From IMG/VR virus record IMGVR_UViG_3300003097_000006: 64,000 bases of DNA; one strand, written 5' to 3'. A program made the translations under genes and the position numbers. The DNA is from a virus (taxonomy: Duplodnaviria > Heunggongvirae > Uroviricota > Caudoviricetes). Positions 1 to 21,593 of the stretch are shown one piece after another; the stretch's first letter is position 1, and the number at the start of each line of letters is the position of its first letter. The notes beneath the pieces were generated by a model, which saw nothing but the letters and a program-made list of their open reading frames with translations, was not told the DNA's origin and did no database searches.

Positions 1-293
1 CCGCCAGCATTTACACGGAAGTTCTGCATACCACGACGCAGAGAACCATACGTTGCGATGAAAGTTTTGCCCTCAGATGGGAAGATTACGTTTTTAACTA
101 CGTCAGTCATTTTCTTTTCCTGTTCAGGGATATAGTGTCGGAACTCGACAAAACGCCAAGTATTCATGTAGTGCAGTGCGAGACTTTTAGCCTCTTCGTA
201 CTGAAGGCCACTTCCAATTACGTGGCCATCTTCACCCTTGCCCATACGTCCAATGAGCATGAAACGGTATTTTGGGTCGTTAAGATTTCCCAT
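1..293 (-). CDS. gamma-glutamyl cyclotransferase (AIG2/GGCT)-like protein, partial; runs off the window start
   Basis: The minus-strand reading frame is open from the ATG at 291-293 to position 1. The translation ends ...KTFIATYGSLRRGMQNFRVNAGG, and YGSLRRG is the hallmark N-terminal motif of the AIG2/GGCT fold. An alternative internal start (MTDVV, ATG at 108-110) has an AGGAAAAG ribosome-binding site. Confidence 0.5.
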   Translation of the reverse strand, partial: MGNLNDPKYRFMLIGRMGKGEDGHVIGSGLQYEEAKSLALHYMNTWRFVEFRHYIPEQEKKMTDVVKNVIFPSEGKTFIATYGSLRRGMQNFRVNAG

Positions 294-468
294 TCACAAC
301 CTTCCTACTATTGAGACTGTTGAGCAGGTTTCTGGAAAAATTAAAGGACATTGTATCAAACACCCCTTCACCCTTAGGACCAGCTTTAACTGTTTTCTCT
401 AAGTTTTCACGGAGCTTTCGCCCATTCTCTTCCATTTGAGCTTTGTGTTTTTCATCAAACAGAGCCAC
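280..468 (-). CDS. hypothetical protein (62 aa)
   Basis: ORF from the six-frame track on the strand shared by the whole block. Lys/Glu-rich, no recognisable motif. Confidence 0.35.
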   Translation of the reverse strand: MALFDEKHKAQMEENGRKLRENLEKTVKAGPKGEGVFDTMSFNFSRNLLNSLNSRKVVNGKS

Positions 469-823
469 TTTTACCCTCCGACCAGATTGGCGACAGAGAT
501 TTCAAGAATGAAAACACTTCTTTATCGCTCTTGAAACGTTTAATACCTTTGTGACGTTGAATACCTTCACCGACCATTTGAATGTACTCAAACGCATCAT
601 CAAATGAGAAGAATTCAAACTCTTCACCGCTGTAACGGTTCTTCGTTAAACGCCAAGACAGTGTTGCATCGTAGTCACAATCAATGACGTATTCTGCAAA
701 CCGAATAAGGTCACGGTAATACCGATGGGTTAGTTCATCGGCGGCCTCTTCAAAATCACAGAAGTCATATGGCTCCTCTTCCAAGAAAGCATATAACTTA
801 CCCTGAATTACCAGAATTGTCAT
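455..823 (-). CDS. hypothetical acidic protein (122 aa)
   Basis: Minus-strand ORF tightly packed against its neighbours. No recognisable motif. Confidence 0.5.
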   Translation of the reverse strand: MTILVIQGKLYAFLEEEPYDFCDFEEAADELTHRYYRDLIRFAEYVIDCDYDATLSWRLTKNRYSGEEFEFFSFDDAFEYIQMVGEGIQRHKGIKRFKSDKEVFSFLKSLSPIWSEGKSGSV

Positions 824-875
824 GTTAAAATCGCCTTGTACGCCAACCAGGCGTCTTGACTTTTGACATACACCC

Positions 876-1160
876 TCACTTGATGCTTACAGATACATCA
901 AACACAGAGGTTGGACCATCTCCACAATTCATAATGTTACTACCAGTCATAACAACAACCTTTGTGACTTTATGTTTTGCAGCGAATGCAGCAATGGCTT
1001 CCGTTAGTGCAGTATATGAATTCACATACCCAATATCGTCACAAGACCTCATGTTTGGAGAAGTCAGGGAACAATACGGACCTTTACCGGCAATAACAGA
1101 ATCAATCAACTGCTTTTTGTTGGTTTCATTCTTCGTCACAGTAGTGAACCTCAGCAACAC
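876..1160 (-). CDS. hypothetical protein (94 aa)
   Basis: Minus-strand ORF. It overlaps the 3' end of the upstream ORF 1126..1446 by 35 nt in another frame. Confidence 0.4.
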   Translation of the reverse strand: MLLRFTTVTKNETNKKQLIDSVIAGKGPYCSLTSPNMRSCDDIGYVNSYTALTEAIAAFAAKHKVTKVVVMTGSNIMNCGDGPTSVFDVSVSIK

Positions 1161-1446
1161 GGGTCACTGATTTCTTGGTCGGGTTGATACTCGAACCTTG
1201 ATACCAGCGAGAATCAGAAGAAAGTACATGACCAACCTCTGCTTCTTCAGCAGGCAGAATGGCCACATTACAGGTTTCACCCATTGCATCTTTCATATGA
1301 CTGAAAGGGTTCAGAGAGAAACGTTCGATTTTGTTACACACAGTAACTTTACAGAGACGCTGATTCTTCAGTTCATCTTTCAGAGATGCTGCTGAACCAA
1401 ACGAAACGCCTAAACCAATTACTGCAACAAGTAAAGCCTTTTTCAT
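1126..1446 (-). CDS. hypothetical secreted protein (106 aa) with N-terminal signal peptide
   Basis: N-terminus MKKALLVAVIGLGVSFGSAAS is a typical Sec signal peptide. Confidence 0.5.
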   Translation of the reverse strand: MKKALLVAVIGLGVSFGSAASLKDELKNQRLCKVTVCNKIERFSLNPFSHMKDAMGETCNVAILPAEEAEVGHVLSSDSRWYQGSSINPTKKSVTRVAEVHYCDEE

Positions 1447-1650
1447 TTAATCATTACCTTTTCTTTTAAAGTTAGAACCTACAAGAGTCCCTCTACTTCT
1501 TATTGTGGAAGTAGATACTGAGAATTGATTTCCCGTCTTTGGATTAAAAACATCACAACTTGAAGACCAGCAATATAATATTACCAGATGTTGTCCAGTT
1601 TTACCATCCATTTTAACAACAAGCCCTGGGCACAGGAAAGTATCTTTCAT
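1447..1650 (-). CDS. hypothetical protein (67 aa)
   Basis: Minus-strand ORF abutting its neighbours. Confidence 0.4.
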   Translation of the reverse strand: MKDTFLCPGLVVKMDGKTGQHLVILYCWSSSCDVFNPKTGNQFSVSTSTIRSRGTLVGSNFKRKGND

Positions 1651-1893
1651 TCAACCTCCGAGCCACTGGCTCATTGTTTTTTCGATGTACTCACACTGAA
1701 CATCTGTTGCACCTGTAGAGAATTGTTCATGCAACATACACTCCCAGAATGGATTAAAGACCTCAATCCACGTTGTTCCGTTTGAGAAGTGTGTTCTGTA
1801 GATAACACATCCATTGTTCCAAACAGAATCAATTGCTTTCTTCAGACGTTCATTTTCCATGAGCACCTCATTATTGGCTCCAAGTTTTACCAA
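1651..1893 (-). CDS. hypothetical protein (80 aa)
   Basis: Minus-strand ORF abutting its neighbours. Confidence 0.45.
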   Translation of the reverse strand: MVKLGANNEVLMENERLKKAIDSVWNNGCVIYRTHFSNGTTWIEVFNPFWECMLHEQFSTGATDVQCEYIEKTMSQWLGG

Positions 1894-1974
1894 TTAAACT
1901 AATGTTTCAGAGACAACAGGTTGTAATTGATGTTCCTACGCATCCTGATTTCGAGTCAGGAATTGGAGACGATT

Positions 1975-2033
1975 TGGTGGAGGAGACGGGGGTCGAACCC
2001 GCACAATTAATCCTATACCGACAGGACTCCCCC
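1975..2033 (-). ncRNA. tRNA-like element of unclear identity: T-arm, 7-bp acceptor helix and encoded CCA, no canonical D-arm
   Basis: The reverse complement reads GGGGGAG-TCCTGTCGGTATAGGATTAATTGT-GCGGG-TTCGACC-CCCGT-CTCCTCC-A-CCA. The T-loop (TTCGACC), the acceptor pairing GGGGGAG/CTCCTCC and the terminal ACCA are clear, but only about 59 nt lie between the acceptor strands. Confidence 0.3.
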
Positions 2034-2117
2034 TGAATTTGGGCGAGTTTGTTTAAAGAGGGTTGACTCGCTTACCTCTCCCACACGTTCTCGGTTTGGG
2101 TTTCGAGAACTTACGCC

Positions 2118-2195
2118 TGGTGGATACTTCGGGACTCCAACCCGAGTCTCAGGACCTAAAGCCCTGCGCGCATATGCTTACATCGCCTAGTACCC
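2118..2195 (-). tRNA. atypical tRNA, anticodon UUA as folded (would read the UAA ochre codon); candidate suppressor tRNA
   Basis: The reverse complement folds as: acceptor GGGTACT/AGTATCC; D-stem GCG/CGC; anticodon stem CAGGG/TCCTG; loop CTTTAGG (U33, anticodon TTA); variable loop AGAC; T-arm TCGGG-TTGGAGT-CCCGA; discriminator A plus CCA. Atypical features are A8 and no GG in the D-loop. Confidence 0.45.
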
Positions 2196-2366
2196 GTTTA
2201 TGTTTGCAAGTCCGTGTCGTTAATACGGCTCTCCGGGCTCATGCGACCCAGCGCATTTTGTATACTCTATGCTAACTTGCTAAGTGGTGAATTGAAGCAT
2301 AATTACCGCTATACGACCACCCTTTCGGGCAGGTTGGTTCTGACCCAACGTCTCTTCAATTCAAAA

Positions 2367-2455
2367 TGGTTGGGGTGGTGGGATTTGAACCCACACTCCA
2401 CTTAAGGAGACACATTCTTAGTGTGCTGCGTACGCCTTTCCGCCACACCCCATTA
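2367..2455 (-). tRNA. type-II tRNA (Leu-like) with a long variable arm; anticodon AAG as folded
   Basis: The reverse complement has acceptor TGGGGTG/CACCCCA, D-stem GCG/CGC with loop GAAAGGCGTA, anticodon stem GCACA/TGTGT, loop CTAAGAA, variable arm CTCC-TTAAGT-GGAG, T-arm GTGGG-TTCAAAT-CCCAC and a terminal ACCA. Confidence 0.5.
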
Positions 2456-2500
2456 ATTCATATTCGACAAAGGCCACTCCGAAGAATGACCTTTAGCAAA

Positions 2501-3079
2501 TTACTCAGGCTTGGCCTTGAGTTTGACGACTCGTAACTGTTTGGTCTGAGCGGTGCGCTTGTATTCATCCAGAGAATCCGGAGATACAGTCATAGCGCCC
2601 CAACCTTCAACACGAACATTAATACGAACCATCTTATCATACAACTCCTTGATTTGTGCTGGAGTTTCAATCTTATCACCCTGTACCTGGTTAACCACAA
2701 CTACAGTTTTACCAGTGGATTTCAGACCTTTCTTCACAACACGAGCAGTTACATGATAACCAACAATTACCTCAGTTGTTTCAATGTCAAGGAATTCATC
2801 AGTCAGGTCAATAATATTGGCATCTTTACGACGACCAATATCATATACGCTGCCAACACGGAAACTATCACCAATGTCATAGACACGGATGCCAGTTAAC
2901 TGGGAGCTTGCATATGCTTCTGCACTGCCATAGTTACGAACCATATAAGAATGCTGATTAGCAGACTGACGGACGTAGTTGCTATGATAGGCATCATAGA
3001 TTGACTTTAACTGAGCGAATACATCATCTTTCTCAGTGGAGATGGACATGATGTTGCCAGAATTAACAGTGATAAACAT
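2501..3079 (-). CDS. hypothetical protein (192 aa)
   Basis: The ORF is preceded by the conserved promoter-like box at 3094-3117 and by an AAGGAAC ribosome-binding site. Confidence 0.6.
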   Translation of the reverse strand: MFITVNSGNIMSISTEKDDVFAQLKSIYDAYHSNYVRQSANQHSYMVRNYGSAEAYASSQLTGIRVYDIGDSFRVGSVYDIGRRKDANIIDLTDEFLDIETTEVIVGYHVTARVVKKGLKSTGKTVVVVNQVQGDKIETPAQIKELYDKMVRINVRVEGWGAMTVSPDSLDEYKRTAQTKQLRVVKLKAKPE

Positions 3080-3093
3080 GAGAATATAGTTCC

Positions 3094-3117
3094 TTTATAT
3101 TATGTGGATTTACTGTA
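3094..3117 (-). promoter_or_regulatory. conserved promoter-like box (GTAAATCCACATAATATAAAGGA on the minus strand) 15 nt upstream of gene 2501..3079
   Basis: It is one of four near-identical copies (3094, 16073, 29037, 34976). Each contains a TATAAT-like element and three sit directly upstream of a ribosome-binding site and start codon. Confidence 0.5.
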
Positions 3118-3136
3118 CAATCTTTGTACAGGTCTA

Positions 3137-3652
3137 TTACAGACGGGTTACTACGTTTTCGTAAGTGGTTACAGCTTTACGAGCCACTTTACCGTGCAAG
3201 CGACACCAGAAGAACTCGCCGCCGTGACGCTCAGCCATAGAGTGAGCAACAGCACGAGCCTGCTTTTCACTTTCCAGAACTACGCGAGGTGGCAGGTTTG
3301 AAGTCGGGCACCAGATGATATACTTACCTGGAACATCATCATCGTCTTTCTCTGGAATTGCTTTAGCGCCGTTAGGGCAAAGCTTCTCTTCCAGATACAT
3401 TGCAGTACCATACACCAATGTCCAACAATACTGGCGAAGCTTCTCTTTAGTTACTTCACGAGTACAGTTGAAAGTACGAATAACATTGCCATCGACGTCG
3501 AAATAAGTAACGTCGGTGCTATTAGAGTTAGCACCCGGTTTCAGTTCGATAGCACCTGCAATATTGCTACCGCGTTTAAGGAGAATTCGGTCACCGGTTT
3601 TAAATACATAGGACGGGCCACGAGCCGGAATCAGAGTGTGCTTAACGGTCAT
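3137..3652 (-). CDS. hypothetical protein (171 aa)
   Basis: Minus-strand ORF. Contains a DDDD acidic patch and no recognisable motif. Confidence 0.6.
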   Translation of the reverse strand: MTVKHTLIPARGPSYVFKTGDRILLKRGSNIAGAIELKPGANSNSTDVTYFDVDGNVIRTFNCTREVTKEKLRQYCWTLVYGTAMYLEEKLCPNGAKAIPEKDDDDVPGKYIIWCPTSNLPPRVVLESEKQARAVAHSMAERHGGEFFWCRLHGKVARKAVTTYENVVTRL

Positions 3653-3858
3653 TATTTACCTACCTTGGTAACTGCTTCGATGATGTGAGAAGGGAATGAT
3701 GCAACCAACTGCATGTTGGACTGACCTTTATCGTTCACACCGCTTTCATAGAACTTGGTGTGAGCTGGGTCAATTTGAACCATATCCGCATGAAATGTCT
3801 GAGCTCTACGGTCAACCTCAGATTTCAGGAACTCTACTTTGTACTTAACCTTTGCCAT
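3652..3858 (-). CDS. hypothetical protein (68 aa)
   Basis: Minus-strand ORF whose stop overlaps the next start. Confidence 0.5.
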   Translation of the reverse strand: MAKVKYKVEFLKSEVDRRAQTFHADMVQIDPAHTKFYESGVNDKGQSNMQLVASFPSHIIEAVTKVGK

Positions 3859-3860
3859 TG

Positions 3861-4046
3861 TTAAACCTCAACGACTGATTTGATTTGCTCTAATGGATAG
3901 AGCGCGATTGTATCATAGCGATTTTCACCACTACGAATGGTTTCTTTCTCTTTAAGAATCTGCACAGATGCAGAATCTGTCCAGAGCTTAGTGCCGTTAT
4001 GACGAACCTTCTCGTCATTGTACAGTGTTACTTCGTAGACTTTCAT
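3861..4046 (-). CDS. hypothetical protein (61 aa)
   Basis: Minus-strand ORF. Confidence 0.45.
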   Translation of the reverse strand: MKVYEVTLYNDEKVRHNGTKLWTDSASVQILKEKETIRSGENRYDTIALYPLEQIKSVVEV

Positions 4047-4047
4047 G

Positions 4048-4275
4048 TTACGACCACGCTGGTGTCATGTCCTTCAAGGCAAAGTCACGAACCTGGTCTT
4101 TATCCACGTCGAGCGCCTTCAGGAGCCACTGGTCCTCAGGATGCCACTCCGTGTGGCCGAACCAGATGTTGATGGGGATGATTCTGCGTTCAGCAGTTTC
4201 ACCACGATAGTTGGTATAGGTGACCCGGTGTGGAACACCGAGCACCATCAACTTAGGACGGTACTCGTTTGCCAT
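4048..4275 (-). CDS. hypothetical protein (75 aa)
   Basis: Minus-strand ORF. The plus-strand ORF 4045..4278 lying antisense to it is taken as spurious. Confidence 0.45.
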   Translation of the reverse strand: MANEYRPKLMVLGVPHRVTYTNYRGETAERRIIPINIWFGHTEWHPEDQWLLKALDVDKDQVRDFALKDMTPAWS

Positions 4276-4595
4276 TAGAAAGGTATCTTGTCGTCAAAGC
4301 CAATCATAGACTGAGCAATACGCTCAATCTCCCTGTCACGCATCTGCTGACGGAAGCACATCTTGTCATATATTTCAATGACCTTTCGTACTTTATCATC
4401 AATGGTGATTTTAGGCTTCACATCGTCAATGAAATGAAGCCTTCGGAAAGGCATGACCAAGTACACAAACTTCGCAGCTTCGAGATTAGTGCGAAGGCAT
4501 ACTCGGTCACCATTGCTCAACTTATAATACACAGAGGTGCTCCAGAATTGTTGCGTCTGATGCCGCGACTGGAACCTCCCAGCCAACGATTTCAA
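4275..4595 (-). CDS. hypothetical protein (106 aa); start uncertain
   Basis: Minus-strand ORF overlapping the 3' end of the ATP-grasp gene by about 74 nt. An internal Met would remove the overlap. Confidence 0.4.
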   Translation of the reverse strand: MKSLAGRFQSRHQTQQFWSTSVYYKLSNGDRVCLRTNLEAAKFVYLVMPFRRLHFIDDVKPKITIDDKVRKVIEIYDKMCFRQQMRDREIERIAQSMIGFDDKIPF

Positions 4596-5781
4596 AGTGA
4601 GACATGCTTACGTCGTACTTACCAACAGTACGCTCACCGTCAACAGTGATTAAATAAACACCGTTGTTTTGGAGAGTTGGAGTGCTATTTGCCAACTGAA
4701 CAGCACGTTCGCCATTACGACGGCTCTGGTTGCTTTGGGTACGGTTTACAGGAGTTGCCCGTAAGTTTTGTGCAGAATCGCCGGACAGCGCAAAGTTTTC
4801 ATCAGCAGCAACTTCTTGTTCAGGAGCCGGTGCTGGCGCTGGGGCAGGTGCAGCTTCACGCTGTAAAGTCTGACGAACGGTACGTGTCTGAGCAGAAGGT
4901 GTGTTGTTCACTTCACGCTGAAGTTCGTCCAGAGAAGGGGCAGGCATCACCTCTTCAACTTCCTGGCCGTTCAGGAGACGCAGCACGTTTGATGCGAAGG
5001 TTGTCAGGTTAGTGCCTGTCATACCTGGAGCGGTATTTACTTCCAGAACCCATGCTTCATCACGACGAGTGATTACATCAACTGCACCGTAATCCAGACC
5101 CAGAGCCTGAATAGCTTTCAGCGCTTCACGCTTAGCCTCTTCATTAAGCTGAGCCATTTGGGTGGCATAAATCCAGCCGGTATGGTAGTTGCGAACTACG
5201 CCAGAATATTCCGGCATGTCAGCGTAACCATCACGACGCTTTTTCTGCTGAACGTAGGTGATTTTACCTTTCATGACGTGAATACGGAACTCACGACGGT
5301 CTGCGGTAATACCACGAGTGTACAACTGGGCGCTTACCGCTGATTCAGAAGTCTGGACACCACCGATGTTTCCCAGGCTGGAAGGGTCGCGGTGACAGGC
5401 AACGATGCCCTCGCCTGAATGGCCCTGGAGTCTTGTGCGGGCATAGACAAGTTCACCGCTGTCAACCCACTCTTGGGCGGTTGTGCGTGAAGTGGTGAAG
5501 TCGACAGTTTTGACTCCAGCATCTGCAAAAGTTCGGAAAGCGGTTGATTTATTGGAAGCGTTGCCAATGCGATGTCCTGGGTTGAGAACGGTAGCACGAC
5601 CGATTACGTGAGAAGGCATGTTGGAATCACCATAGTTAATGATGATATCACCAGCACGGCCTGTGAAATTGGAGTTGTTGCGACGAATTTTAATCAGGTT
5701 GTCACCCTGTGCAGCCACTTCAACTTTCAGTGCATTTACAGTGTCAGAAGCCGCGTGAGACCAGATTGCTAAACGTGCCAT
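4522..5781 (-). CDS. ATP-grasp family ligase (RimK-like) with PAPAPAPAPE linker and extra C-terminal domain
   Basis: The segment ...GAVDVITRRDEAWVLEVNTAPGMTG matches the ExN..PG C-terminal ATP-grasp motif, and the N-terminal half fits an ATP-grasp fold. A (PA)4 linker precedes an approximately 100-aa tail. It sits in a cluster with the GATase and amidoligases. Confidence 0.65.
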   Translation of the reverse strand: MARLAIWSHAASDTVNALKVEVAAQGDNLIKIRRNNSNFTGRAGDIIINYGDSNMPSHVIGRATVLNPGHRIGNASNKSTAFRTFADAGVKTVDFTTSRTTAQEWVDSGELVYARTRLQGHSGEGIVACHRDPSSLGNIGGVQTSESAVSAQLYTRGITADRREFRIHVMKGKITYVQQKKRRDGYADMPEYSGVVRNYHTGWIYATQMAQLNEEAKREALKAIQALGLDYGAVDVITRRDEAWVLEVNTAPGMTGTNLTTFASNVLRLLNGQEVEEVMPAPSLDELQREVNNTPSAQTRTVRQTLQREAAPAPAPAPAPEQEVAADENFALSGDSAQNLRATPVNRTQSNQSRRNGERAVQLANSTPTLQNNGVYLITVDGERTVGKYDVSMSHFEIVGWEVPVAASDATILEHLCVL

Positions 5782-5858
5782 TTTGTATTTACCTTTTCAT
5801 CTATTGGTTGGGAAGAATCTACATTATAAGAGGCTCCGAAGAACCTCTGAAATATAGA

Positions 5859-6110
5859 CTACGCCTCTTTCAAAGCAAGAAGACTTGCAACAATATCACG
5901 ATTCTTAGTTTTAAGACCCGCAATCTCGTCGTCTATAAGGCTGTAGTGATAGGTGAGCATCATCAGTGAAAGTTCGCCATTCGTATGGGAAATCATCTGA
6001 TTGACGTAATACAACTTCTCCTCAAGAAGCTCACCAATACGCTTAAGGTTGTCTTTGCAGAGAGCATCGCTCTCCGCTTTCAACTCCTTCATTACATCCT
6101 TATCGGACAT
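5859..6110 (-). CDS. hypothetical coiled-coil protein (83 aa)
   Basis: Minus-strand ORF. Confidence 0.5.
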   Translation of the reverse strand: MSDKDVMKELKAESDALCKDNLKRIGELLEEKLYYVNQMISHTNGELSLMMLTYHYSLIDDEIAGLKTKNRDIVASLLALKEA

Positions 6111-6340
6111 TAGACCTTAATACCTTTCAGTCGGCAATAATCGGCCAGCATCATGTGAATTGACACTGGATAAGGGATGGCCACTTTAACTCCCTTCTGT
6201 TCTTCGTGGAGACGGACTTGGTAGTCACGTACCGCTCGGAGCATATCTGAACCAAAGTCGGTCATTGGCACTTTACGTACTACAACCGGATTGTCCAGGC
6301 GGAGCATTTTAACTTCTTTCATTGAATTATCCATATTCAT
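6110..6340 (-). CDS. hypothetical protein (76 aa)
   Basis: Minus-strand ORF abutting its neighbours. Confidence 0.5.
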   Translation of the reverse strand: MNMDNSMKEVKMLRLDNPVVVRKVPMTDFGSDMLRAVRDYQVRLHEEQKGVKVAIPYPVSIHMMLADYCRLKGIKV

Positions 6341-6349
6341 CTTTACCTA

Positions 6350-8299
6350 TTACTTGTTGTGGCTTGGAACCATTCCCAGTTCCAATTTTTTAGCGCAGGT
6401 TTCACAGCAAGGTGTGCTACCTACGAATTCTGTCGTTGCTGCCTTTTTGAATGGAATTTTATCATGACACCAAGAGCAGGTGTTCATTTCATTCCACTGA
6501 GACAGCGTGACCTTCATCCCATTTTGAAGAGTTTTACGATACGTCAGAATTGGACGAACGTTGCCCTTCGGTTTGTTAGCGTATTTGTTTGCAAAGCACT
6601 GCAAACAGACACACTCTTTTTCTGACTCTGCATCAACTGGAAGTTCAGTCGAACATTCGATACACTCGAAGCGAAGTTCTCCCAGTTGAGGCTCCCCCTT
6701 TGATTGTGACTCCTTTGGTTCAAGGCCGTCAATAAGACCGGCATCTACGCAGGCGTCACAGTAGGCGAAGTCACGGAACACAGTGGCATCAGCCATGAAG
6801 TCGAAGGGGATTGGAGAGCCACAATTTCCGCAGGAATTTAAACAATCGTGTCTCTCCCACTCCTTTTTTGTATAGACGCTACCATCTCTGGTTACGTCCA
6901 TTTCGTTACCGTCTGATTCCTCTTCTTCCATTTCTGGGTCTTGAGGGACGTCAACGTCGTCAGGAGTGTGTGTCTGAGCAATCAGCGCAGTTCCACGAAC
7001 AGTTGATGCAATGATATGTTCCATTTCATCATCTTCATCAAAATCATCATCCAAAGGAATTGGAGTGACATTGACAGTTTCGTCACGAACATCGCTGACA
7101 ATCAGAGTCAGAATGTAGTTGGCTTCATAAGCCGAGATAACTTTACCAGAGTACAGTTGCTCACCGCCATAGATGTTTTTATCAACACCATGACCCTGAA
7201 CTTCGATGTACTCACCTTCACCAATCCAGCCGGTCAGTTGACCACGCTCAGGATTTTTCGGATATGGTTCGAACTGGAATGCTTCGAACTTAATACGGTC
7301 ACCGATTACAGCATCAACGCCGTGGCTCTGAAGCATCTCATTTAACTGATGATGCTTTTCGAGCGTGGCTCTCATTTCTGATGTTTGATGAGTGTTGCTA
7401 GAAACGCGGTTTGGATAGCTGTTAGCCCCTCGATTATTGTGGGGCCAGCGGCTGTCGTAGTCGTCGTAGTCGTCGTCATACGAGTTATAGCCGCCCGAAT
7501 TCCAGTTGCGATAGTTGTAAGAATAGGTGGAGCGAAAGGTTGGAAGCTCATGCTTCACCTCCTCCCTAAACTTCAGCCCATCGGCGGTATCAAAGATATA
7601 CTGAACACCAACTTCGAGTTCAAACTCTTTTTCAATCGTCGGATTGAACTTCCGGCGAGACATAATCCATTTAATCATGTCTTTTTCGGAAGCACCATAC
7701 CAGTCACCGGTATTGGTTTTCATCATGTAGAAAGGACGCTCATCGTTTCGGATGAAATTCAGAGTGTTCTCTTTAGCATCATGCCAAACCAGAACGAACG
7801 CACCATGCAATTTCTTGATGGTTTCAGCGATACCGATTGTAGCAATCGAATAGCAGACATTTTCACTGTCTACTTCGAAACGCTTGTGGTCTGGTAACAA
7901 AGACTGGTCAACCAGTGAACCATTGTGAACCAGGGTGATATGCTCATGTTGGAAAGGGTGAGCGTTTTTGTCGTTAACCGCACCGGCAGTTGCATAACGG
8001 TTGTGACCAACCATGAACTTCGGATTGATTGAAGACGTCGTTGTTGCCTTCGTAACAGGGTTAACATTTTTGGTTTTGTGTTCTTTAACATCATCCCAGA
8101 TTTGGGAACGAACAAACATGTCACCTGGGATTGCTTTCTTTGCAATCTTAATGAAAGCTTGTTCATTATACGGCTTGTAATAAGCCATGACGCCAGTTGA
8201 GTGTTCACCACGGAAAGTGTCAGCAAACAACATGTTTTCAAAACGTTCGATATTAGCCGACGAAAGTGTCACGCCGCCCACAAATACGATTCCACACAT
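6350..8299 (-). CDS. class-II (Ntn) glutamine amidotransferase fused to a C-terminal array of CxxC zinc ribbons
   Basis: The protein starts MCGIVFVGG with a Cys2 nucleophile and carries GHNRYATAG, both characteristic of GATase class II (GlmS/AsnB/PurF-like). A Tyr/Asp/Asn-rich low-complexity linker follows. The C-terminus has at least 5 CxxC pairs (CGNCG, CDAC, CIEC, CLQC, CSWC, CETC). Confidence 0.7.
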   Translation of the reverse strand: MCGIVFVGGVTLSSANIERFENMLFADTFRGEHSTGVMAYYKPYNEQAFIKIAKKAIPGDMFVRSQIWDDVKEHKTKNVNPVTKATTTSSINPKFMVGHNRYATAGAVNDKNAHPFQHEHITLVHNGSLVDQSLLPDHKRFEVDSENVCYSIATIGIAETIKKLHGAFVLVWHDAKENTLNFIRNDERPFYMMKTNTGDWYGASEKDMIKWIMSRRKFNPTIEKEFELEVGVQYIFDTADGLKFREEVKHELPTFRSTYSYNYRNWNSGGYNSYDDDYDDYDSRWPHNNRGANSYPNRVSSNTHQTSEMRATLEKHHQLNEMLQSHGVDAVIGDRIKFEAFQFEPYPKNPERGQLTGWIGEGEYIEVQGHGVDKNIYGGEQLYSGKVISAYEANYILTLIVSDVRDETVNVTPIPLDDDFDEDDEMEHIIASTVRGTALIAQTHTPDDVDVPQDPEMEEEESDGNEMDVTRDGSVYTKKEWERHDCLNSCGNCGSPIPFDFMADATVFRDFAYCDACVDAGLIDGLEPKESQSKGEPQLGELRFECIECSTELPVDAESEKECVCLQCFANKYANKPKGNVRPILTYRKTLQNGMKVTLSQWNEMNTCSWCHDKIPFKKAATTEFVGSTPCCETCAKKLELGMVPSHNK

Positions 8300-8366
8300 G
8301 GGAAAGTTTCCTCTTGAAACATTTAAAGAAGGGGCTTTATGCCCCTATGATGGACGATAGTTCGTC

Positions 8367-10070
8367 TCAGAAGTTGGCTGTATCTTCGTCGTCTTCTTCG
8401 TCGTAACCTTCGTACTCTTCATCATCGTCTTCAAAAGAAGCACGACGTGGGGCCGGTTGAGGTACACTGCGGGAAGAGTAGAACTCACGATAGAGTTGAC
8501 GATGTTGATTCGGCAACTGACGAGGCACGAACCAGTCAGAGTCGAAGGTAATGCCGCGTTCACGACATTTCTCTTGCAACTCAGCCAACCATTCGAATGT
8601 AATTACATCCGGTGCTGAATCTGGGAACAACCACATACCGTCAGTATGTCGGCGCAATTCACGCTGAAGATGGTTGATATATGGGCTTTCAACCGTCACA
8701 CGCATTCTGCGAGATGTATCATCGGTTTCGTTACGAACGTTGTGAACGTAAACATTACGACGACGACACTTAGCCAGAGAAACCACATCGTGAGCCAGCT
8801 TATAACCAATCTCCATGTCTTGCTCAAAGTCCGGTAAGACTTTAGGCAGACCTTTGCGAATCGCTTGGTGAAGCGGAATCGTCATGAGATATTCGATGAA
8901 CGATGAATCATCGCCTTCGAAGTTCATTGCTAACTCTTTCAGCGAGAGGAAGCGGTTGACCAGGCGAATCAAACGACCTTTACGCCACTTCGCTTCACTG
9001 ATGCGGAACTCGATGGAACCGAAGCTCTGCATTGGAAGCAAGTTCAAGGACGTGTACTTGTCCCAGTTTGAAGCGATGCTACGCATGAAGTTCTGGTCGT
9101 CTTGTTCCCACGCACGAGCCAGAATAGCCAACTGGTCTTGGGCAAAGCCCAAAGCAACACAGAAGTTATTCTTGTAACGATGCCACCCTGAACATTTGAA
9201 CAGGATACGCTCGTAAACAATGTACGCCAGAATCATTCGCTTCAACTGAGGAGCAGTCATGTTACGAACGTCTACGTGGACATGAGTTGAACAACGCCAA
9301 GACTCATCCGGAGAGTTCGTGAACAAGAAGCTGTCGATTTCAATCGCAGCATTGTACAGGTCGCGTCCACCCCACGGAGATGAGCAGACAAATTCCATTC
9401 CGGAATTACGCAGAGAACCATCTGACTTAGCTTCCCAATACTGGAAGTTAGGGGGGTTGGAGGTCATGTTCTCCAATTCAATCTCAACCCCAGCGAGATT
9501 CTGACCCACAATCAGTGGGTGACTCTCAATTGTCGGATACGACGCTCGTTGTCCAAAAACCTGAGCAACAGTAACCATATTATTATCAACCTCTACGTTA
9601 CCAGATATGAAGTTTTCCTGATTAACACTTCCAAAGCTTCCGTTGCCTTGGCGAGGGTGGTCCTCATCAGACCAGTGGTAGACACCACTAACAGCACCAG
9701 GTGCATCATCAACCGGTTCTGTGTGAGCTGCTTGGAAGGGGTCAGAAGTTAGACTACCAGAACCCCCTCCAAAGGCGTGTGCAAATTGGGCATATCGACT
9801 GATTCCACCATTAGTACGTGAACGTGATGATACAGACTGAACTGTACGTTGACCGGATTCAGCTTCTGCTCTTGCACGTTCTTGACGTTCTCGGATTCGA
9901 GCTAAATCTCTGTCCCACATTGCCTGCCACTCATTTACCGCCCTTGTGGCATCTTCTGTTGGTGGAGCAGGTGGTGGAGCAGAAGCCTCACGGGCCTCTG
10001 CTTCTAAACGATTCCGGTCATTTTCAGACCGGATATGAGCCATTAACTCGTCGAAACTACGGTTTGGCAT
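8367..10070 (-). CDS. glutamine-synthetase-fold amidoligase (Amidoligase_2-like) with low-complexity N-terminus and acidic C-terminal tail
   Basis: Motifs VEIELENM, SGMEFVCSSP, THVHVDV and GSIEFRISEAKWRKGR give the Glu/Glu, HxH and ExR constellation of GS-like/GCS2 amidoligases. The protein is 567 aa. Confidence 0.6.
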   Translation of the reverse strand: MPNRSFDELMAHIRSENDRNRLEAEAREASAPPPAPPTEDATRAVNEWQAMWDRDLARIRERQERARAEAESGQRTVQSVSSRSRTNGGISRYAQFAHAFGGGSGSLTSDPFQAAHTEPVDDAPGAVSGVYHWSDEDHPRQGNGSFGSVNQENFISGNVEVDNNMVTVAQVFGQRASYPTIESHPLIVGQNLAGVEIELENMTSNPPNFQYWEAKSDGSLRNSGMEFVCSSPWGGRDLYNAAIEIDSFLFTNSPDESWRCSTHVHVDVRNMTAPQLKRMILAYIVYERILFKCSGWHRYKNNFCVALGFAQDQLAILARAWEQDDQNFMRSIASNWDKYTSLNLLPMQSFGSIEFRISEAKWRKGRLIRLVNRFLSLKELAMNFEGDDSSFIEYLMTIPLHQAIRKGLPKVLPDFEQDMEIGYKLAHDVVSLAKCRRRNVYVHNVRNETDDTSRRMRVTVESPYINHLQRELRRHTDGMWLFPDSAPDVITFEWLAELQEKCRERGITFDSDWFVPRQLPNQHRQLYREFYSSRSVPQPAPRRASFEDDDEEYEGYDEEDDEDTANF

Positions 10071-10648
10071 TCTGGGTACTCCTGACTCACTGAACGAAGC
10101 AAATGAGCCGCCTCTGGGAACAGCTCAATGCCTTCCCCGACGAACTTACCGATGTACACGTCTTTATAACGCAAATCATCATCAGTTTTGAGGAAGACGT
10201 TGCCAGACACTTCAGGATACTTGTGCTCACTAAAGAACTCAGCGATTGTATCCCAATCGAACACTGGCATTCCGCAAACACGGCGACTTGTCAGACCTTT
10301 CTTGGTCGAACGATTCGCACGATACGAAACCCAATAATAACGATTACGCCACTTAATGTAGCGAGAGTCTGGAAGTTCCAGAACCAACTTCTCGTCAGTG
10401 TGAGGAACTGAACGGTTTTCGTAATTACCGTTCGGATAACGAACTGTTCCGTGGAACACCAGAGCATCCAGTGCATCATCAGAGAAACCTAAAGTCTCAC
10501 GGTCAGATGCACTCATTGCTCGCAGGTTCATCACATTGTTATCGTGAGTTACCGCTTCAATTTGAAACGGCAACAAACCATGTTCAGGGTCACGATAACC
10601 GACGTAAGTCGAACAGTAATACATTCCGAAATCGTCGGATAAAGCCAT
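10043..10648 (-). CDS. hypothetical protein (201 aa) located between the two amidoligase paralogs
   Basis: Minus-strand ORF with no recognisable motif. Its position suggests it belongs to the ligase cluster. Confidence 0.55.
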   Translation of the reverse strand: MALSDDFGMYYCSTYVGYRDPEHGLLPFQIEAVTHDNNVMNLRAMSASDRETLGFSDDALDALVFHGTVRYPNGNYENRSVPHTDEKLVLELPDSRYIKWRNRYYWVSYRANRSTKKGLTSRRVCGMPVFDWDTIAEFFSEHKYPEVSGNVFLKTDDDLRYKDVYIGKFVGEGIELFPEAAHLLRSVSQEYPECQTVVSTS

Positions 10649-10658
10649 CTTGTGCTCC

Positions 10659-11462
10659 TTAGCAGATGTTCAACATACGGATGAACTGTTCCGCCATGTG
10701 TTTGTCGTTGTTGTTGATTGCCTTCTGAATATCTTCAGGGTTAACAATCGACACCATCTCCATGTAATCACCCTGAGACATGTCGAACGCTTTATGAGCC
10801 TGTTCCCAAGCCCAGCGACGATTATCGTCATTGGCAATCCAGAAGTTAGACAGAACACGATATTCAATACCGTACTCTTTGAAACGGCAAGCACCCGCTT
10901 TGCCATACAGCTCTTTACGACGGTCGTCGCCGTCCAGAAGAAGTGCAGGCAGACCCAGATAGTAATCACACATTACACCCATAACCTTCTGAAGTTCAGA
11001 GGTTACAGGAACCACACCGCTTACGCCAATGTGAATGTGACCACCTGCTGTACGGAGGCCTGGGTCAGCAGCAGCCGGTTTAGGGTTACGCATACCGGTC
11101 AGAGCATTGTAATCCGGCTCACAACCGAATACGAATGCATCTTTGTGGAATGATAATAACTCTTCCGGCGTGAAGATGTGAGAACTCACACCGAGAATAA
11201 CTTCGTGACCAACTTCTGCAACAGCCTCTTGACATAAGTCAATGCCGCGCTTAATGTTGTCATTGAAGCCGTCAAAATCACCATGCGGGTTGGTATCAAA
11301 CTCAACCAGCACGTTATCTTCCTGAATACGAATGTCGTCCGTGACTACCTTTTTGTTGTACTTGTCCGCTCCCAGCAGACCTGCAACTGAACTGATAAGG
11401 TTGCTGCTCACATTACGGGTGAACAGTTCAGGGTCAGTTGCCAACAAAATGACTTTAGACAT
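10659..11462 (-). CDS. second glutamine-synthetase-fold amidoligase paralog (267 aa)
   Basis: VLVEFDTNPHGDFDG, GGHIHIG and EYGIEYRVL reproduce the E-x-E, HxH and E-x-R pattern of GS-like amidoligases. Confidence 0.55.
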   Translation of the reverse strand: MSKVILLATDPELFTRNVSSNLISSVAGLLGADKYNKKVVTDDIRIQEDNVLVEFDTNPHGDFDGFNDNIKRGIDLCQEAVAEVGHEVILGVSSHIFTPEELLSFHKDAFVFGCEPDYNALTGMRNPKPAAADPGLRTAGGHIHIGVSGVVPVTSELQKVMGVMCDYYLGLPALLLDGDDRRKELYGKAGACRFKEYGIEYRVLSNFWIANDDNRRWAWEQAHKAFDMSQGDYMEMVSIVNPEDIQKAINNNDKHMAEQFIRMLNIC

Positions 11463-11476
11463 TTCTATATCCTTAA

Positions 11477-12550
11477 TTAAAGACGTGGTGGAATGTTGTT
11501 ATCGGTACAGAATTGAGCAAGACGCTCAATAAGAAGCTCAGCCTTCTCATCGCTTAAGCTCTCCTGTAGATATGTGATATCATCTAAGAAAAACTTAAAC
11601 CCAAGAACACTGTTCCATTGTTGAATTTCTTCATCAATGGGAACATCCCCCGGAATACTGAACACGTCAATCATGTGCCAATATTTACGAGGACACATTG
11701 GTACTCGGTCTTCACGACCCCAGTTTTGAAGCTCAGCAGCAACATCACGGCTCTTTGTCGTGAAGTTCCAAAGGAACCCTTCATAACGTTCGTCGAACCA
11801 GATTTCGTTTCTGCGGAACCATTCTTCGCGGAAGTAGCCTTTAGACTCACTCCACTTGTGCTGCTTCCACCGGAAAGCTTCCAGATTCTGACCCATAAGG
11901 TTCAGGAACCCTTGACGACCCAGTGTATCAGGACTACACCAGTTATACTCACCGGTTTGTGTGTTCTGAATTACAGCTTTAGGAGCACGACCGAAAGTAC
12001 CTGGCATCACATCAATGTAAACCATGTGCGCCACAACAGCCGCGAAACGAGGACGATAACCTTTGTTCAGTAACCAACGATAACCCATTGCGAAGTTACC
12101 GTATTGAGCCAAGTTACGGAAAAGGTAGAGAGCCAACATGATTTGGTCGGCAGTGTGGTCTTTGATATGCACACGAATGCCGCCGATGAGGGGGTGGACA
12201 GTCACAAGACCTGCCAACATTGGCAAGTCTTCAACCAAATCCTTCATCATGTTCAGAAAGTTACGGTTTGCGGTTTTACGAGCATCGGTTCGAGATACGT
12301 CGCTAGGCCAGTCACGAGTCGAGTAATCAGACTGGTCGTAGCACCAAATTGGATGAATCCCATGAAGAGAGTCATACAAAATGAATGCATGGTCAGAGCC
12401 ATCACGGTCTAACAGACTGTGTACGTTGCTTCCAGAGAAGCTGAACGGTCTCTGCTCATGCCAACGGGCGTTTCCCATAACCCCGAAGCAAATGGATTCG
12501 TTTGAAAAACGGTTCCCATCCTTGAAAACCACACTGTAACGTACTGACAT
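11477..12550 (-). CDS. hypothetical protein (357 aa)
   Basis: Minus-strand ORF, Trp-rich, no recognisable motif. Confidence 0.55.
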   Translation of the reverse strand: MSVRYSVVFKDGNRFSNESICFGVMGNARWHEQRPFSFSGSNVHSLLDRDGSDHAFILYDSLHGIHPIWCYDQSDYSTRDWPSDVSRTDARKTANRNFLNMMKDLVEDLPMLAGLVTVHPLIGGIRVHIKDHTADQIMLALYLFRNLAQYGNFAMGYRWLLNKGYRPRFAAVVAHMVYIDVMPGTFGRAPKAVIQNTQTGEYNWCSPDTLGRQGFLNLMGQNLEAFRWKQHKWSESKGYFREEWFRRNEIWFDERYEGFLWNFTTKSRDVAAELQNWGREDRVPMCPRKYWHMIDVFSIPGDVPIDEEIQQWNSVLGFKFFLDDITYLQESLSDEKAELLIERLAQFCTDNNIPPRL

Positions 12551-12551
12551 T

Positions 12552-13463
12552 TTATTCCCCTTTATTATCTTTCAGTACTTTCTCCCACACCGCCTGAGCA
12601 AGCTTCAGGAATTCACTTTCAACAAAGCGATGATGGTTTCCAAAACTGTTGTTGATAGTCAACAGTTCAGTTTTATCCCAATCTTCCGGGATGTTTTCCA
12701 GAGACGTTAACATCGTTGTATCAGTCAGAGTACAACGACGACCGGTACGTGGGTTAACTGGAGCAGAACCATCCCCGTAGTTACCATAACGACCGTAACC
12801 CTGCTCTGTATCACCGAACACGCCTTGATAGATTTTACCTAATCCACCTTCCATCATGTTGATGAGGTCAGCAACGGTTACTTCGTCACCGAATACACAT
12901 TCATCTCCACCCTGACCTTGCCAGAACGAGTATTCGGATGAACCGAAGCTCTTATTGCACTGATAGGTCATTGCCATGACGAACGAGAATGGAACATCGA
13001 AACCGGCAGTACGCAGAATCATGTACGAGTTCCCGAATGAGCTGTACTCAATCAGGTTACGCAGCATCATTGCGCCCATCACAGTAGTCTGCATGTTTTG
13101 GTCAGCCAGTGGAATATAAATATCACCGGTATCAAAACCGCCAAGTTCCAGACCTGGATAACTCTCATCTTCATCCAGAATCTTAAACCCACTGAAATAC
13201 TGAGGGAATGCTGCCAGAATTTCTGGAAGCTCCTGATTAATCAGCTGAGTTCCATCGCACCCAGATGGGCCAGGTGACCAAACCATATGGCTCAATTCAC
13301 CAGATGAGAAACCACTGAGAGGACCGGCTACATACTCGTCCTCTTCGTCATCCCATTGTTCGTTATCTTCATCCCACTGTTCGATGTAGGATAAAAATCC
13401 AAAGCAAGGTTTTGAAAACTCTTCACTTGCACCTCGCTTATTAAACACCGTAGCCATTACCAT
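12552..13463 (-). CDS. hypothetical protein (303 aa), acidic N-terminus
   Basis: Minus-strand ORF, Gly/Tyr-rich, no recognisable motif. Confidence 0.55.
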   Translation of the reverse strand: MVMATVFNKRGASEEFSKPCFGFLSYIEQWDEDNEQWDDEEDEYVAGPLSGFSSGELSHMVWSPGPSGCDGTQLINQELPEILAAFPQYFSGFKILDEDESYPGLELGGFDTGDIYIPLADQNMQTTVMGAMMLRNLIEYSSFGNSYMILRTAGFDVPFSFVMAMTYQCNKSFGSSEYSFWQGQGGDECVFGDEVTVADLINMMEGGLGKIYQGVFGDTEQGYGRYGNYGDGSAPVNPRTGRRCTLTDTTMLTSLENIPEDWDKTELLTINNSFGNHHRFVESEFLKLAQAVWEKVLKDNKGE

Positions 13464-16895: not shown

Positions 16896-17117
16896 TCACC
16901 CCTCCTTAGAAACACTTCCAGAAAATTTAACCTTGAAGTATTTCTTCAAATGCTCCACAGACATATACGCCAGCACAACATCAATGCCAGCACCCAGCAC
17001 TGATGCGTTGCGTACATCGTAGATAAACAGGAAGAACAGAATAACTAAAAACACCATATGTGCATACGGTGTATTCAGAAAGTCTGCAACCTTATTCAGC
17101 TTTGACTTAAAGCTCAA
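16896..17117 (-). CDS. small membrane protein (73 aa)
   Basis: Hydrophobic segment HMVFLVILFFLFIY. Its start overlaps the NAMPT stop. Confidence 0.45.
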   Translation of the reverse strand: MSFKSKLNKVADFLNTPYAHMVFLVILFFLFIYDVRNASVLGAGIDVVLAYMSVEHLKKYFKVKFSGSVSKEG

Positions 17118-18784
17118 AACAGCCCCTTAGCTACGGCTTCTTTCACCGTGCGGTCAACGTATGATTCGATACGTGCCAGCACTTCATCACCGCTTTCAGT
17201 GAAGATTTCACCGTTGCGGTAGATAGTTACCAGCGCAGTGTCTGCTTCTTCTTCAACAGTAGCCTGGTCTTTGAAAGTCCAGTTACCGTTTTCATCGACG
17301 AAGTGAGCCATCAAGCCTTTAGCAGACTTTTTGGTGCCATCGTCAGTTGCAGGGTCTTTGAAGATTTCGCGGGCTTCACCATTAACGATGCCCCACGTCG
17401 CTTTCATAGCCCAGCCCAGCGTGTCACGAGTGACATACTGATAGGTGAACGAGCCGATACCCAGCACAACGTTGCTAGAGGCAAAGCCCTTAGCTTTGAG
17501 ACGCTGGAAGATTTCGAGCTGACGTTCCAGAGAGATTGAATCGCCGTAAATCAGGCCGATTTGAGGAGCGAGGACTTTGTAGCCTTTGGAGTTGATTTCA
17601 CCACCAAAAGTATCCCACAGAATCTGAATCGCACCTTTCACTTCCGCTTCTGACTTTTTAGTCACGCAGAAGTAACCGCCGTTGAAGTACGCATAGGTGA
17701 AGTATTCATCACCAATCTGTACAACATACGAACCATTTTCCGGCAGGTCGTTAGCATCATCCAGCATCCACTGACGTGCAATGTTCTCGTCTTTGAAACG
17801 AGCCACAACAGTGAATCCACAGATAATGTCTTCCGGAACACCGGAATCAGGACGAACAACCAGCTTACCATCACGTTCCATGATGATATCTTTGATGCTC
17901 GGCAGGGTGATTGTCAGAACATCCCAGAAGTTCCAGGTGTCAGACACGACCGACAGAATACCGGTAGTGTAGACTTCGGTCAGAAGACGAATGAACGTCT
18001 GGCGCTCATCATCTTTACCACCCATGCACATTACTGAATGCTCAGTAGCATTTACAGAGCCACCACGACCAGCTTCGGTCGGATAATGCTCATTGAAACG
18101 CTCACGGGCAAACACAGAGTCTGTCCCGTTGTAAGCCATCATATGACCAATACCGGTCAGACTGTTAGCCCACATGCCCATGCTCCCACGAGCAGCAAAG
18201 TCATGACCCTGCCACTGAACGTGGTCGTTGTTGTCGCAGGTCAGCTCAGCGAAGTATTCGCTCATCAGACGGAAGCTGAGTGCAGTCGTTGCAGAGGTAG
18301 CAACAGGCCACAGTTCAGCGCTCATCAACGTTTCCAAATAGTTCGGAATCCAGTAGAAATCGTCGATGGTGTTGATGATGGTAATCGGAGGACATTTAAC
18401 TTCCACCACATTACCTTCCGGCACTGCTTTAACGTGAATCGGCAGGTAGCCGAGTTTGTGCAGTTCATAGAACGGCTTCACGTCATAGTCGGTGTACAAA
18501 TAACTGTTAACCGATGCACGGAATTTCTCAACCACTTCTTCAGCGGGTTGGTTAAAGAAGTTGGTCTGAAACTCGTCGACCAGCCACTGAAGCATGAAGG
18601 TCTGAGCACCAACCCAAAGGATTGGAGAACCAGCTTCACCACGGAGGGCTTTGAAGAACGGAGATTTCAGATACTTGTTCGCACGAGGCGTAAAGTTACT
18701 GTACACGCGAGTAGTACCTTCTGGGTACTGAGCGCGGTGACCGAGTTTATAGCCGTCAATCGCAAAGATAGGACTAATTTTCAT
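17114..18784 (-). CDS. nadV: nicotinamide phosphoribosyltransferase (NAMPT/NadV-like)
   Basis: The N-terminus ...SPIFAIDGYKLGHRAQYPEGTTRVYSNFTPR matches the conserved NAMPT N-terminal block (DSYK..H...YP). Size is about 556 aa. The start is trimmed to Met15, giving a TAATG overlap with the Prs stop. Confidence 0.8.
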   Translation of the reverse strand: MKISPIFAIDGYKLGHRAQYPEGTTRVYSNFTPRANKYLKSPFFKALRGEAGSPILWVGAQTFMLQWLVDEFQTNFFNQPAEEVVEKFRASVNSYLYTDYDVKPFYELHKLGYLPIHVKAVPEGNVVEVKCPPITIINTIDDFYWIPNYLETLMSAELWPVATSATTALSFRLMSEYFAELTCDNNDHVQWQGHDFAARGSMGMWANSLTGIGHMMAYNGTDSVFARERFNEHYPTEAGRGGSVNATEHSVMCMGGKDDERQTFIRLLTEVYTTGILSVVSDTWNFWDVLTITLPSIKDIIMERDGKLVVRPDSGVPEDIICGFTVVARFKDENIARQWMLDDANDLPENGSYVVQIGDEYFTYAYFNGGYFCVTKKSEAEVKGAIQILWDTFGGEINSKGYKVLAPQIGLIYGDSISLERQLEIFQRLKAKGFASSNVVLGIGSFTYQYVTRDTLGWAMKATWGIVNGEAREIFKDPATDDGTKKSAKGLMAHFVDENGNWTFKDQATVEEEADTALVTIYRNGEIFTESGDEVLARIESYVDRTVKEAVAKGLF

Positions 18785-19674: not shown

Positions 19675-20009
19675 ATTGCCTCTGTATGAAGGGTGGTAAC
19701 CACACTGCCAGCCTGGCCTAAAAACACGGGAACAGAAAATCCACATAAAAGGTTTTACCCAGGATTTTAAGAGCCTTACAAACTATCGTTTGATGGTCGC
19801 CGTCTGGGCAACCAATGAGGCTTATTCAACTAACTTTTAATTGAGCGCCATGCCCATACTGAGTGTTAACAGCTGAGTCTTAAGTTTTAACCCGGTGCGG
19901 TTTTACGGCTGCCCGGTTAGCCCCTAGGTTTCAATTAGCAGTTGAATGCCACTATCGCTGTGGCTTGCGTTCTGTTTTAGTTTTAACAGCAGGTGATTAC
20001 CGATTTTGT

Positions 20010-21363: not shown

Positions 21364-21456
21364 CTTAACACCTCTCATTGTTAGTTGACATATAACTAAT
21401 AAAGCCCACTTATCAACCACCCCTCTAAGAAGGGAAGCTGTAAATGGGCTTGATAG

Positions 21457-21579: not shown

Positions 21580-21593
21580 GAATCACCTATGAA

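Follow-up and report, generated by a model that had tools for sequence, protein, structure and literature searches.

The 64,000-nucleotide stretch of viral DNA analysed here (IMG/VR record IMGVR_UViG_3300003097_000006; hereafter the window) carries an amidoligase cassette at its left end, which encodes a RimK-type ATP-grasp ligase, a class-II glutamine amidotransferase (GATase), an Amidoligase_2 ligase and a phiEco32-type COOH-NH2 ligase, together with accessory proteins and a gamma-glutamyl cyclotransferase (GGCT). We consider it probable (about 0.7) that these genes form one conserved, phage-restricted cassette for ATP- and glutamine-dependent amide-bond chemistry on glutamate or gamma-glutamyl linkages, with a protein or protein-held acceptor favoured. 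All three ligases have intact catalytic motifs, and a stand-alone class-II glutaminase domain is encoded beside Amidoligase_2.

The cassette has been published previously and is annotated in GenBank in the nearest relative; it is not a new system, because the grouping traces to Iyer et al. in 2009 and the genes are annotated in phages 7-11 and SeKF_80. Positions 1–12000 of the window are 96.9% identical to Salmonella phage 7-11 (NC_015938; Moazamivirus, Grimontviridae) across 93% of their length, and 95.7–96.8% identical to phages SeKF_80 and SE131. The lengths of the cassette open reading frames (ORFs) equal those of 7-11 gp099 and gp102–gp107. Product names are given to four of the five named genes in the 7-11 RefSeq record, where gp103 is a hypothetical protein; the SeKF_80 record names the gp103 counterpart an ‘amidoligase enzyme’. 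The phage amidoligase system was reportedly described by computation by Iyer, Abhiman, Burroughs and Aravind in 2009 (Mol Biosyst 5:1636), and its members include the phiEco32 gp80–86 type, LUZ24, PaP3, tf and UFV-P2, and 7-11 gp086 with gp099–gp107.

The window has the identical gene set and order (as has UFV-P2) and shows no essential difference from that system, whose phiEco32 name is also carried by the Pfam family PF14395. Here the GGCT gene is set apart from the ATP-grasp gene by ~4.2 kb of small ORFs and tRNA genes specific to the lineage, and the GATase, ATP-grasp and amidoligase proteins have long extra regions that are absent from the shorter LUZ24-type proteins. What is added here is a core of four enzymes and one probable adaptor, a pair of interchangeable ‘trimmers’ (GGCT or Peptidase_C26) and, upstream of the ligase gene, a family of paralogues confined to phages. 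The comparison also shows GlmS and S6 glutaminyl transferase to be over-specific as database product names.

The initial annotation had placed five genes of this kind on one strand. All five ORFs were recovered at their positions on the minus strand, as were the other relevant cassette genes, which are tightly packed or overlapping; the segment 11477–13463, which had been taken as one ORF, consists of two genes. The nine cassette genes are as follows, with profile E-values in brackets.

1–293, minus strand: GGACT/AIG2-like gamma-glutamyl(amine) cyclotransferase of 220 residues, cut by the window edge after its first 97 codons
4522–5781, minus strand: RimK-family ATP-grasp ligase, alpha-L-glutamate-ligase-like (Pfam RimK 3.1e-7; PHROG 1.9e-159)
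6110–6340, minus strand: DUF7195, a 76-residue accessory protein (Pfam DUF7195 4.4e-36)
6350–8299, minus strand: class-II (Ntn, N-terminal nucleophile) glutamine amidotransferase domain, residues 1 to ~240 (Pfam GATase_6 5.4e-15; PHROG 1.2e-191)
8367–10070, minus strand: Amidoligase_2 carboxylate-amine ligase (Pfam Amidoligase_2 1.1e-4; phrog_7469 5.7e-90)
10043–10648, minus strand: p201, a 201-residue conserved accessory protein (phrog_4877), in 33/40 full loci
10659–11462, minus strand: phiEco32-type COOH-NH2 ligase (type 2), the signature gene of the cassette (Pfam PF14395 1.2e-9; phrog_3815 1.4e-108)
11477–12550, minus strand: p357, a 357-residue member of a phage-only family whose fold has no counterpart in the PDB, first of a paralogous pair
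12552–13463, minus strand: p303, a 303-residue paralogue of p357 (hhalign against the p357 family, 92% probability, E 5e-7)

Conservation among phages

Conservation was assessed in 88 related phage loci chosen by similarity to one gene; these include close relatives, so that counts among them are not independent events. Between ~80 and 87 homologues of each enzyme were aligned, and 40 loci are full, i.e. the COOH-NH2 ligase gene has 7 kb or more of flanking sequence on each side. All four enzymes are encoded in 40/40 full loci. The conserved order is COOH-NH2 ligase, p201, Amidoligase_2, GATase, (DUF7195), ATP-grasp, (GGCT), with optional members in brackets, and it holds in the Grimontviridae, Gordonclarkvirinae, Bruynoghevirus and Zobellviridae but is rearranged in one crAss-like phage. 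The co-conservation claimed in the initial annotation is therefore borne out for the four enzymes, although not for all five genes, as GGCT is an optional member present in 19/40 full loci. It is highly improbable that these are unrelated auxiliary genes in incidental proximity. The displacement of the GGCT gene from the others would fit such an arrangement, but it is contradicted by the synteny, by the presence of the four enzymes in every full locus and by an order kept across distant phage families; moreover, start and stop codons overlap or abut.

The COOH-NH2 ligase gene is present in 303 of 50,697 deposited phage genomes, with hosts including Pseudomonas, Escherichia, Vibrio, Aeromonas, Proteus, Salmonella and Cronobacter, in addition to the crAss-like phage. 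It is found in at least 569 IMG/VR contig stretches, and a library of 1.84 billion proteins yields 4,537 cluster representatives (50% identity), 2,910 of them at E≤1e-10. Only 36 ligase loci occur in 185,579 bacterial and archaeal species genomes, nearly all of them on contigs of metagenome-assembled genomes (about half of 33–55 kb) or on tiny scaffolds, and the contigs are mostly of metagenomic or phage-like character. The family is, in effect, essentially phage-restricted. Seventeen years after its computational description, this signature ligase, widespread in phages and near-absent from cellular genomes, has no substrate reported in the literature searched.

A gene for a ~220-residue Peptidase_C26 or class-I GATase protein (5.3e-20) is present in 58 of the 88 loci, usually directly upstream of the ligase gene, and is absent from the window. 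The full loci divide into 15 with GGCT only, 19 with Peptidase_C26 only, four with both and two with neither. GGCT and C26, which are unrelated folds that both cleave gamma-glutamyl amides, are mostly complementary and fill one functional slot. The earlier proposal that the system builds and trims gamma-glutamyl linkages finds its best support in this near-complementarity.

Enzymes and accessory proteins

Profile searches place the four enzymes in the families initially assigned to them, each above the family cut-off. The ATP-grasp protein matches Pfam RimK at 30.6 bits (cut-off 21), and its closest PDB entries are those of RimK (7qys and 7qyr). Residues K78, E164, R166, K180, D235 and E247 are invariant in 80/80 homologues and N249 is present in 79/80. 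Beyond residue ~280 the protein is extended by a PAPAPAPAPA linker that is followed by a small domain at the C-terminus. The alpha-L-glutamate ligases RimK, MptN and CofF are its best Pfam, NCBIfam and PDB matches and the ATP-grasp catalytic residues are kept; however, the NCBIfam MptN and rimK_fam matches (~2e-11) lie far under the equivalog cut-offs, with 43 bits compared to 143–350. In the equivalog test for RimK proper, which the protein fails, rimK_fam gives 43.5 bits (cut-off 143) and PRK10446 gives 25.5 (cut-off 331). As these scores are so far under the cut-offs, the ATP-grasp protein is not an orthologue of RimK, MptN or CofF, and by the same comparisons its database name, ‘ribosomal protein S6 glutaminyl transferase’, is over-specific and unsupported.

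The GATase matches GATase_6 at 56 bits (cut-off 27). It begins with MCGIV, such that the catalytic cysteine directly follows the initiator methionine, and 68/86 homologues share the MCG start; 82/87 homologues or more retain R30, H99, R101, N126, G127 and D144. Past residue ~240 the chain continues as a low-complexity linker, then a small region rich in beta structure and three CxxC...CxxC pairs; no Pfam or NCBIfam domain, SIS domains included, was found there, and a synthase domain is lacking. The ‘GlmS’ annotation is over-specific, because this synthase domain is lacking and because the NCBIfam scores for GlmS, PurF and AsnB are about ten-fold under their cut-offs. The GenBank records concerned by these two product names are those of 7-11, SeKF_80 and p2-10_Or1.

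The Amidoligase_2 gene is next to the GATase gene in nearly all loci. Its product gives a borderline match to Amidoligase_2 (PF12224; 22.6 bits, cut-off 22), although homologues match the family clearly (e.g. L037, at 6.5e-15). The catalytic region spans residues ~165–465, preceded by a charged or disordered N-terminal extension of ~165 residues and followed by an acidic C-terminal tail. Residues E196, E198, E226, H263 and H265 are found in 87/87 homologues and E354 and R356 in 83/87, corresponding to E-x-E, H-x-H and E-F-R motifs. The COOH-NH2 ligase matches PF14395 at 38.2 bits (cut-off 25), and its D10, E12, E54, H142, H144, E200 and R202 are present in 86/86 homologues. Both ligases are assigned a putative glutamine synthetase/glutamate-cysteine ligase (GS/GCL)-like fold, based on the Pfam classification and that attributed to Iyer et al. 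in 2009, and on the shared E-x-E, H-x-H and E-x-R motifs. A search for domain fusions that might hint at a target gave no additional Pfam domain in a 774-residue ATP-grasp protein, a 749-residue GATase or amidoligases of 591–595 residues.

The gene at the window edge encodes a product identical over 97 residues to the N-terminus of 7-11 gp086. An extra N-terminal domain of ~60 residues is followed by YGSLRRG (residues 82–88), which opens the GGACT domain; the part containing the catalytic glutamate falls beyond the window. The fragment alone has no Pfam match, and the full-length 220-residue gp086 matches GGACT/AIG2 (5.5e-17; 62.9 bits, cut-off 22.8) and phrog_2520 (3.7e-41). The proposed GGCT fold is thus upheld by the motif and by the full-length relative.

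Accessory proteins are associated with these enzymes in the window or in related loci. The 3′ end of the p201 gene overlaps the start of the amidoligase gene by 28 nucleotides, and structure prediction gives p201 small SH3/Tudor-like (Tudor/Sm/SH3-like) barrels; it has no conserved catalytic residues and is probably a non-catalytic adaptor rather than an enzyme. DUF7195, where present (16/40 full loci), sits between the GATase and ATP-grasp genes. It has no sequence relative in the PDB, and a ribbon-helix-helix assignment from an alignment judged by eye is without PDB support. A 70-residue protein designated c8 is encoded just after the ATP-grasp gene in 15/40 full loci and is absent from the window; DUF7195 and c8 are mutually exclusive. 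The c8 proteins have an N-terminal CxC...CxxC zinc ribbon and a variable acidic tail, and 27/37 end in Glu or Asp. The idea that the CxxC pairs of the GATase are fused copies of c8 was rejected, as a c8 profile run with filters off gave no match at E≤10.

The p357 and p303 genes lie directly upstream of the COOH-NH2 ligase gene. An iterated profile unites both proteins with the two Kuravirus-type upstream proteins, and in the crAss-like phage cr108_1 the analogous pair is likewise paralogous (E 5e-10). The suggestion that interleaved ORFs are partners of the enzymes stands for p201 (10043–10648), DUF7195 (6110–6340) and the 11477–13463 pair, which are co-conserved, but not for the ORFs at 2501–3079 and 3137–3652. 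The latter are present in only three to four closely related loci, and are lineage-specific genes outside the cassette. None of the nine cassette proteins matches a PADLOC anti-phage defence profile.

Candidate chemistry and acceptors

The cassette enzymes could act in a common scheme. The ATP-grasp and COOH-NH2 ligases would attach glutamate-type units to an acceptor carboxylate or amine, and Amidoligase_2 with the GATase would turn a carboxylate into a carboxamide or transfer a gamma-glutamyl unit. GGCT, or C26 in other phages, may strip gamma-glutamyl groups, serving as an eraser or for deprotection. The acceptor would be a protein or protein-held, for instance a small carrier or a target of host or phage origin. 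A protein-borne acceptor is slightly favoured, because of the several conserved non-catalytic proteins (p201, DUF7195 and p357/p303) and the long extensions of the enzymes; a cell-wall or nucleic-acid acceptor is less likely. The sole experimental hint is that two independently evolved lines of one Pseudomonas phage both gained missense mutations in the genes for the amidoligase and the GATase (PMC11450229).

More specifically, we tentatively suggest a phage-specific macromolecule modification, in which the ligases and glutaminase would install a glutamate or gamma-glutamyl-amide mark that GGCT or C26 would erase. A small carrier could be the target, or else a host or phage protein, plausibly one that takes part in replication or translation. 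The p201 adaptor, together with the p357/p303 proteins, which evolve rapidly, may recognise the substrate as subunits or may themselves be substrates. If true, this would give viruses a novel type of machinery for post-translational modification, distributed across thousands of phage lineages.

Several points weigh against a conserved cassette acting on a protein-borne acceptor. No PDB sequence relative of either amidoligase was found and hhalign gave no link between the two ligase families; in addition, the conservation counts derive in part from close relatives, as noted above. Among the small proteins of the window none ends in a conserved Glu or Gln tag; DUF7195, the only small conserved one, ends in ...GIKV. 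The literature searched contains only genome reports and the 2009 prediction, with no experimental substrate, product or phenotype, in agreement with the initial statement that no substrate or product has been defined; a 2023 paper describes the functions as ones that ‘remain to be explored’ (PMC10580990). A free metabolite is almost as likely an acceptor, because RimK-family ligases and C26 hydrolases also act on small molecules.

It is possible that the cassette specifies a free small-molecule pathway, yielding for example a gamma-glutamyl peptide, an amidated glutathione-like thiol or a gamma-glutamyl-polyamine, or that it reshapes the pools of glutamine, glutamate or polyamines in the host, with the non-catalytic proteins acting only as scaffolds. 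Four different amide-forming or amide-transferring enzymes in a fixed order resemble a multi-step pathway, the best NCBIfam similarities of the ATP-grasp protein include the cofactor-tailing ligases MptN and CofF, the GATase has a weak EgtC-like similarity, and the C26 proteins of related loci belong to the family of PuuD and gamma-glutamyl hydrolases. The combination of GCL, ATP-grasp and GGCT has the same logic as the gamma-glutamyl cycle, and in butirosin biosynthesis the ATP-grasp ligase BtrJ is paired with the GGCT-like BtrG. However, simple metabolite pathways seldom have several conserved partners that are not enzymes, or enzymes with long disordered or acidic extensions, a Pfam scan of the cassette shows no transporter or precursor-supply gene, and there is no equivalog-level match to known small-molecule enzymes.

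Systems that use a ‘gamma-glutamyl handle’ include PuuA, a GS-like ligase, with the Peptidase_C26 enzyme PuuD (the Puu/Pau pathways), the gamma-glutamyl cycle, EgtA/EgtC and BtrJ/BtrG. The cassette is similar to these in that a gamma-glutamyl unit would be ligated with ATP and removed by a C26, Ntn-GATase-like or GGCT-like enzyme, but it differs in the lack of equivalog-level similarity, in its two extra ligases and in its phage-only partner proteins. In the Pup-PafA-Dop system, a GS/GCL-fold ligase and a deamidase act on a C-terminal Glu/Gln tag. Both pupylation and the cassette have carboxylate-amine ligases, possibly forming gamma-glutamyl isopeptides, and a linkage-reversing enzyme; no conserved C-terminal Glu/Gln tag is seen in the cassette, however, given the DUF7195 terminus and the variable C-termini of c8. 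The position of c8 after a RimK-like ATP-grasp gene in related loci resembles the architecture of LysW beside LysX, although the C-terminal residue of c8 is not conserved and c8 is not encoded in the window.

Modification of peptidoglycan or envelope precursors, by amidating or extending the stem-peptide glutamate so as to block superinfection or tune lysis, is unlikely. MurT/GatD provides a precedent for the glutamine-dependent amidation of peptidoglycan iso-Glu, and the ATP-grasp protein is also similar to D-Ala-D-Ala ligase. A passage in PMC10580990 attributes to the 2009 study the proposal that cell-wall modification prevents superinfection. Nonetheless, the phages involved infect hosts with very different envelopes (Enterobacteria, Pseudomonas and Vibrio, as well as the host of a human-faecal Crassvirales phage and, according to PMC10580990, marine OM43), the cassette lies beside replication genes and never beside lysis genes in the loci examined, and its Pfam scan shows no Mur ligase or membrane-associated component.

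This location next to replication genes bears on a further alternative, nucleic-acid modification, whether as DNA base hypermodification or as modification of nucleotides or tRNA, which is distinctly unlikely. In most lineages examined the cassette is immediately upstream of the primase/helicase and DNA polymerase genes, and that of cr108_1 is within the replication module; this adjacency may, however, merely reflect shared genome architecture. The Tudor/Sm/SH3-like barrels of p201 and the CxxC pairs of the GATase would be compatible with a nucleic-acid target, and amidoligase and amidotransferase genes adjoin thymidine-hypermodification genes in metagenomic contigs (Lee et al. 2021; PMC8989533). 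Against this, 5-HMUDK, aGPT-Pplase and other known DNA-modification families are absent from the 14 window ORFs in or close to the cassette and 7-11 gp085 and gp086 that were scanned, and Nanopore sequencing of a LUZ24-type relative reported nicks, the hypermodifications in that study being in other phages (Winklervirus; PMC11780129).

Ligase-bearing phages, including the LUZ24/PaP3 type and Kuravirus, are used in therapy work and are readily grown. Because the carrier phages are easy to grow, the function of the cassette is answerable by experiment.

Other features of the window

A single promoter candidate lies upstream of the ATP-grasp gene.

5823–5851, minus strand: sigma-70-like promoter candidate, TTCAGA—17 bp—TATAAT (10/12 matches)

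The 7-11 record has an annotated promoter at the equivalent position, and the overall count of promoter-like sites is not above chance.

The region between the ATP-grasp and GGCT genes includes a ~600-nucleotide gap between small ORFs, in which a tRNA-Leu(AAG) gene (2367–2452) and three tRNA-like elements are located within positions 1976–2452 of the minus strand. All four have a genome-encoded CCA-type 3′ end, that of the tRNA-Leu being just 3′ of the call, and none is annotated in the 7-11 record. The element at 2118–2195 is called by ARAGORN as a ‘tRNA-Stop, anticodon UUA’ and is below the Rfam tRNA threshold. The element at 1979–2033 is a 55-nucleotide mini element with an acceptor stem and T arm and no anticodon arm. 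The third, at 2285–2366, has a 10 bp closing stem that encloses three hairpins, and it folds better than shuffled sequences (z −2.7). A 60-nucleotide segment of it (2296–2355) is 98% identical to stretches in about a dozen Kuttervirus (Vi1-like) phages, which are Salmonella and E. coli phages otherwise unrelated to the source phage; the matching stretches are unannotated or labelled ‘hypothetical’. In the same region, a 75-residue ORF (4048–4275, minus strand) has a weak match to the WYL domain that is below the cut-off (E 0.0019; 18.6 bits, cut-off 21.8), and its SeKF_80 counterpart is annotated as an HNH endonuclease.

The 64 kb window is longer than the 34 kb left in the linear 7-11 record past the matching start point, and so the source genome is probably permuted relative to the deposited 7-11 sequence. 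The sign of the GC skew switches near 36 kb of the window.

Two further gene groups lie to the right of the cassette. A NAMPT/NAPRTase gene (17114–18826, minus strand; 3.5e-30) overlaps a gene for a phosphoribosyl pyrophosphate (PRPP)-synthetase-like protein (18784–19746), and the pair (17114–19746) resembles NARP2, a pathway by which phages reconstitute NAD+ and so counter defences that deplete NAD. A leftwards-transcribed block (20635–23808, minus strand) encodes a ProQ/FinO-domain protein (20635–21420; 1.1e-6), an SPFH/Band-7 protein (21594–22514; 1.6e-18) and an AAA/STAND-like ATPase (22600–23808).

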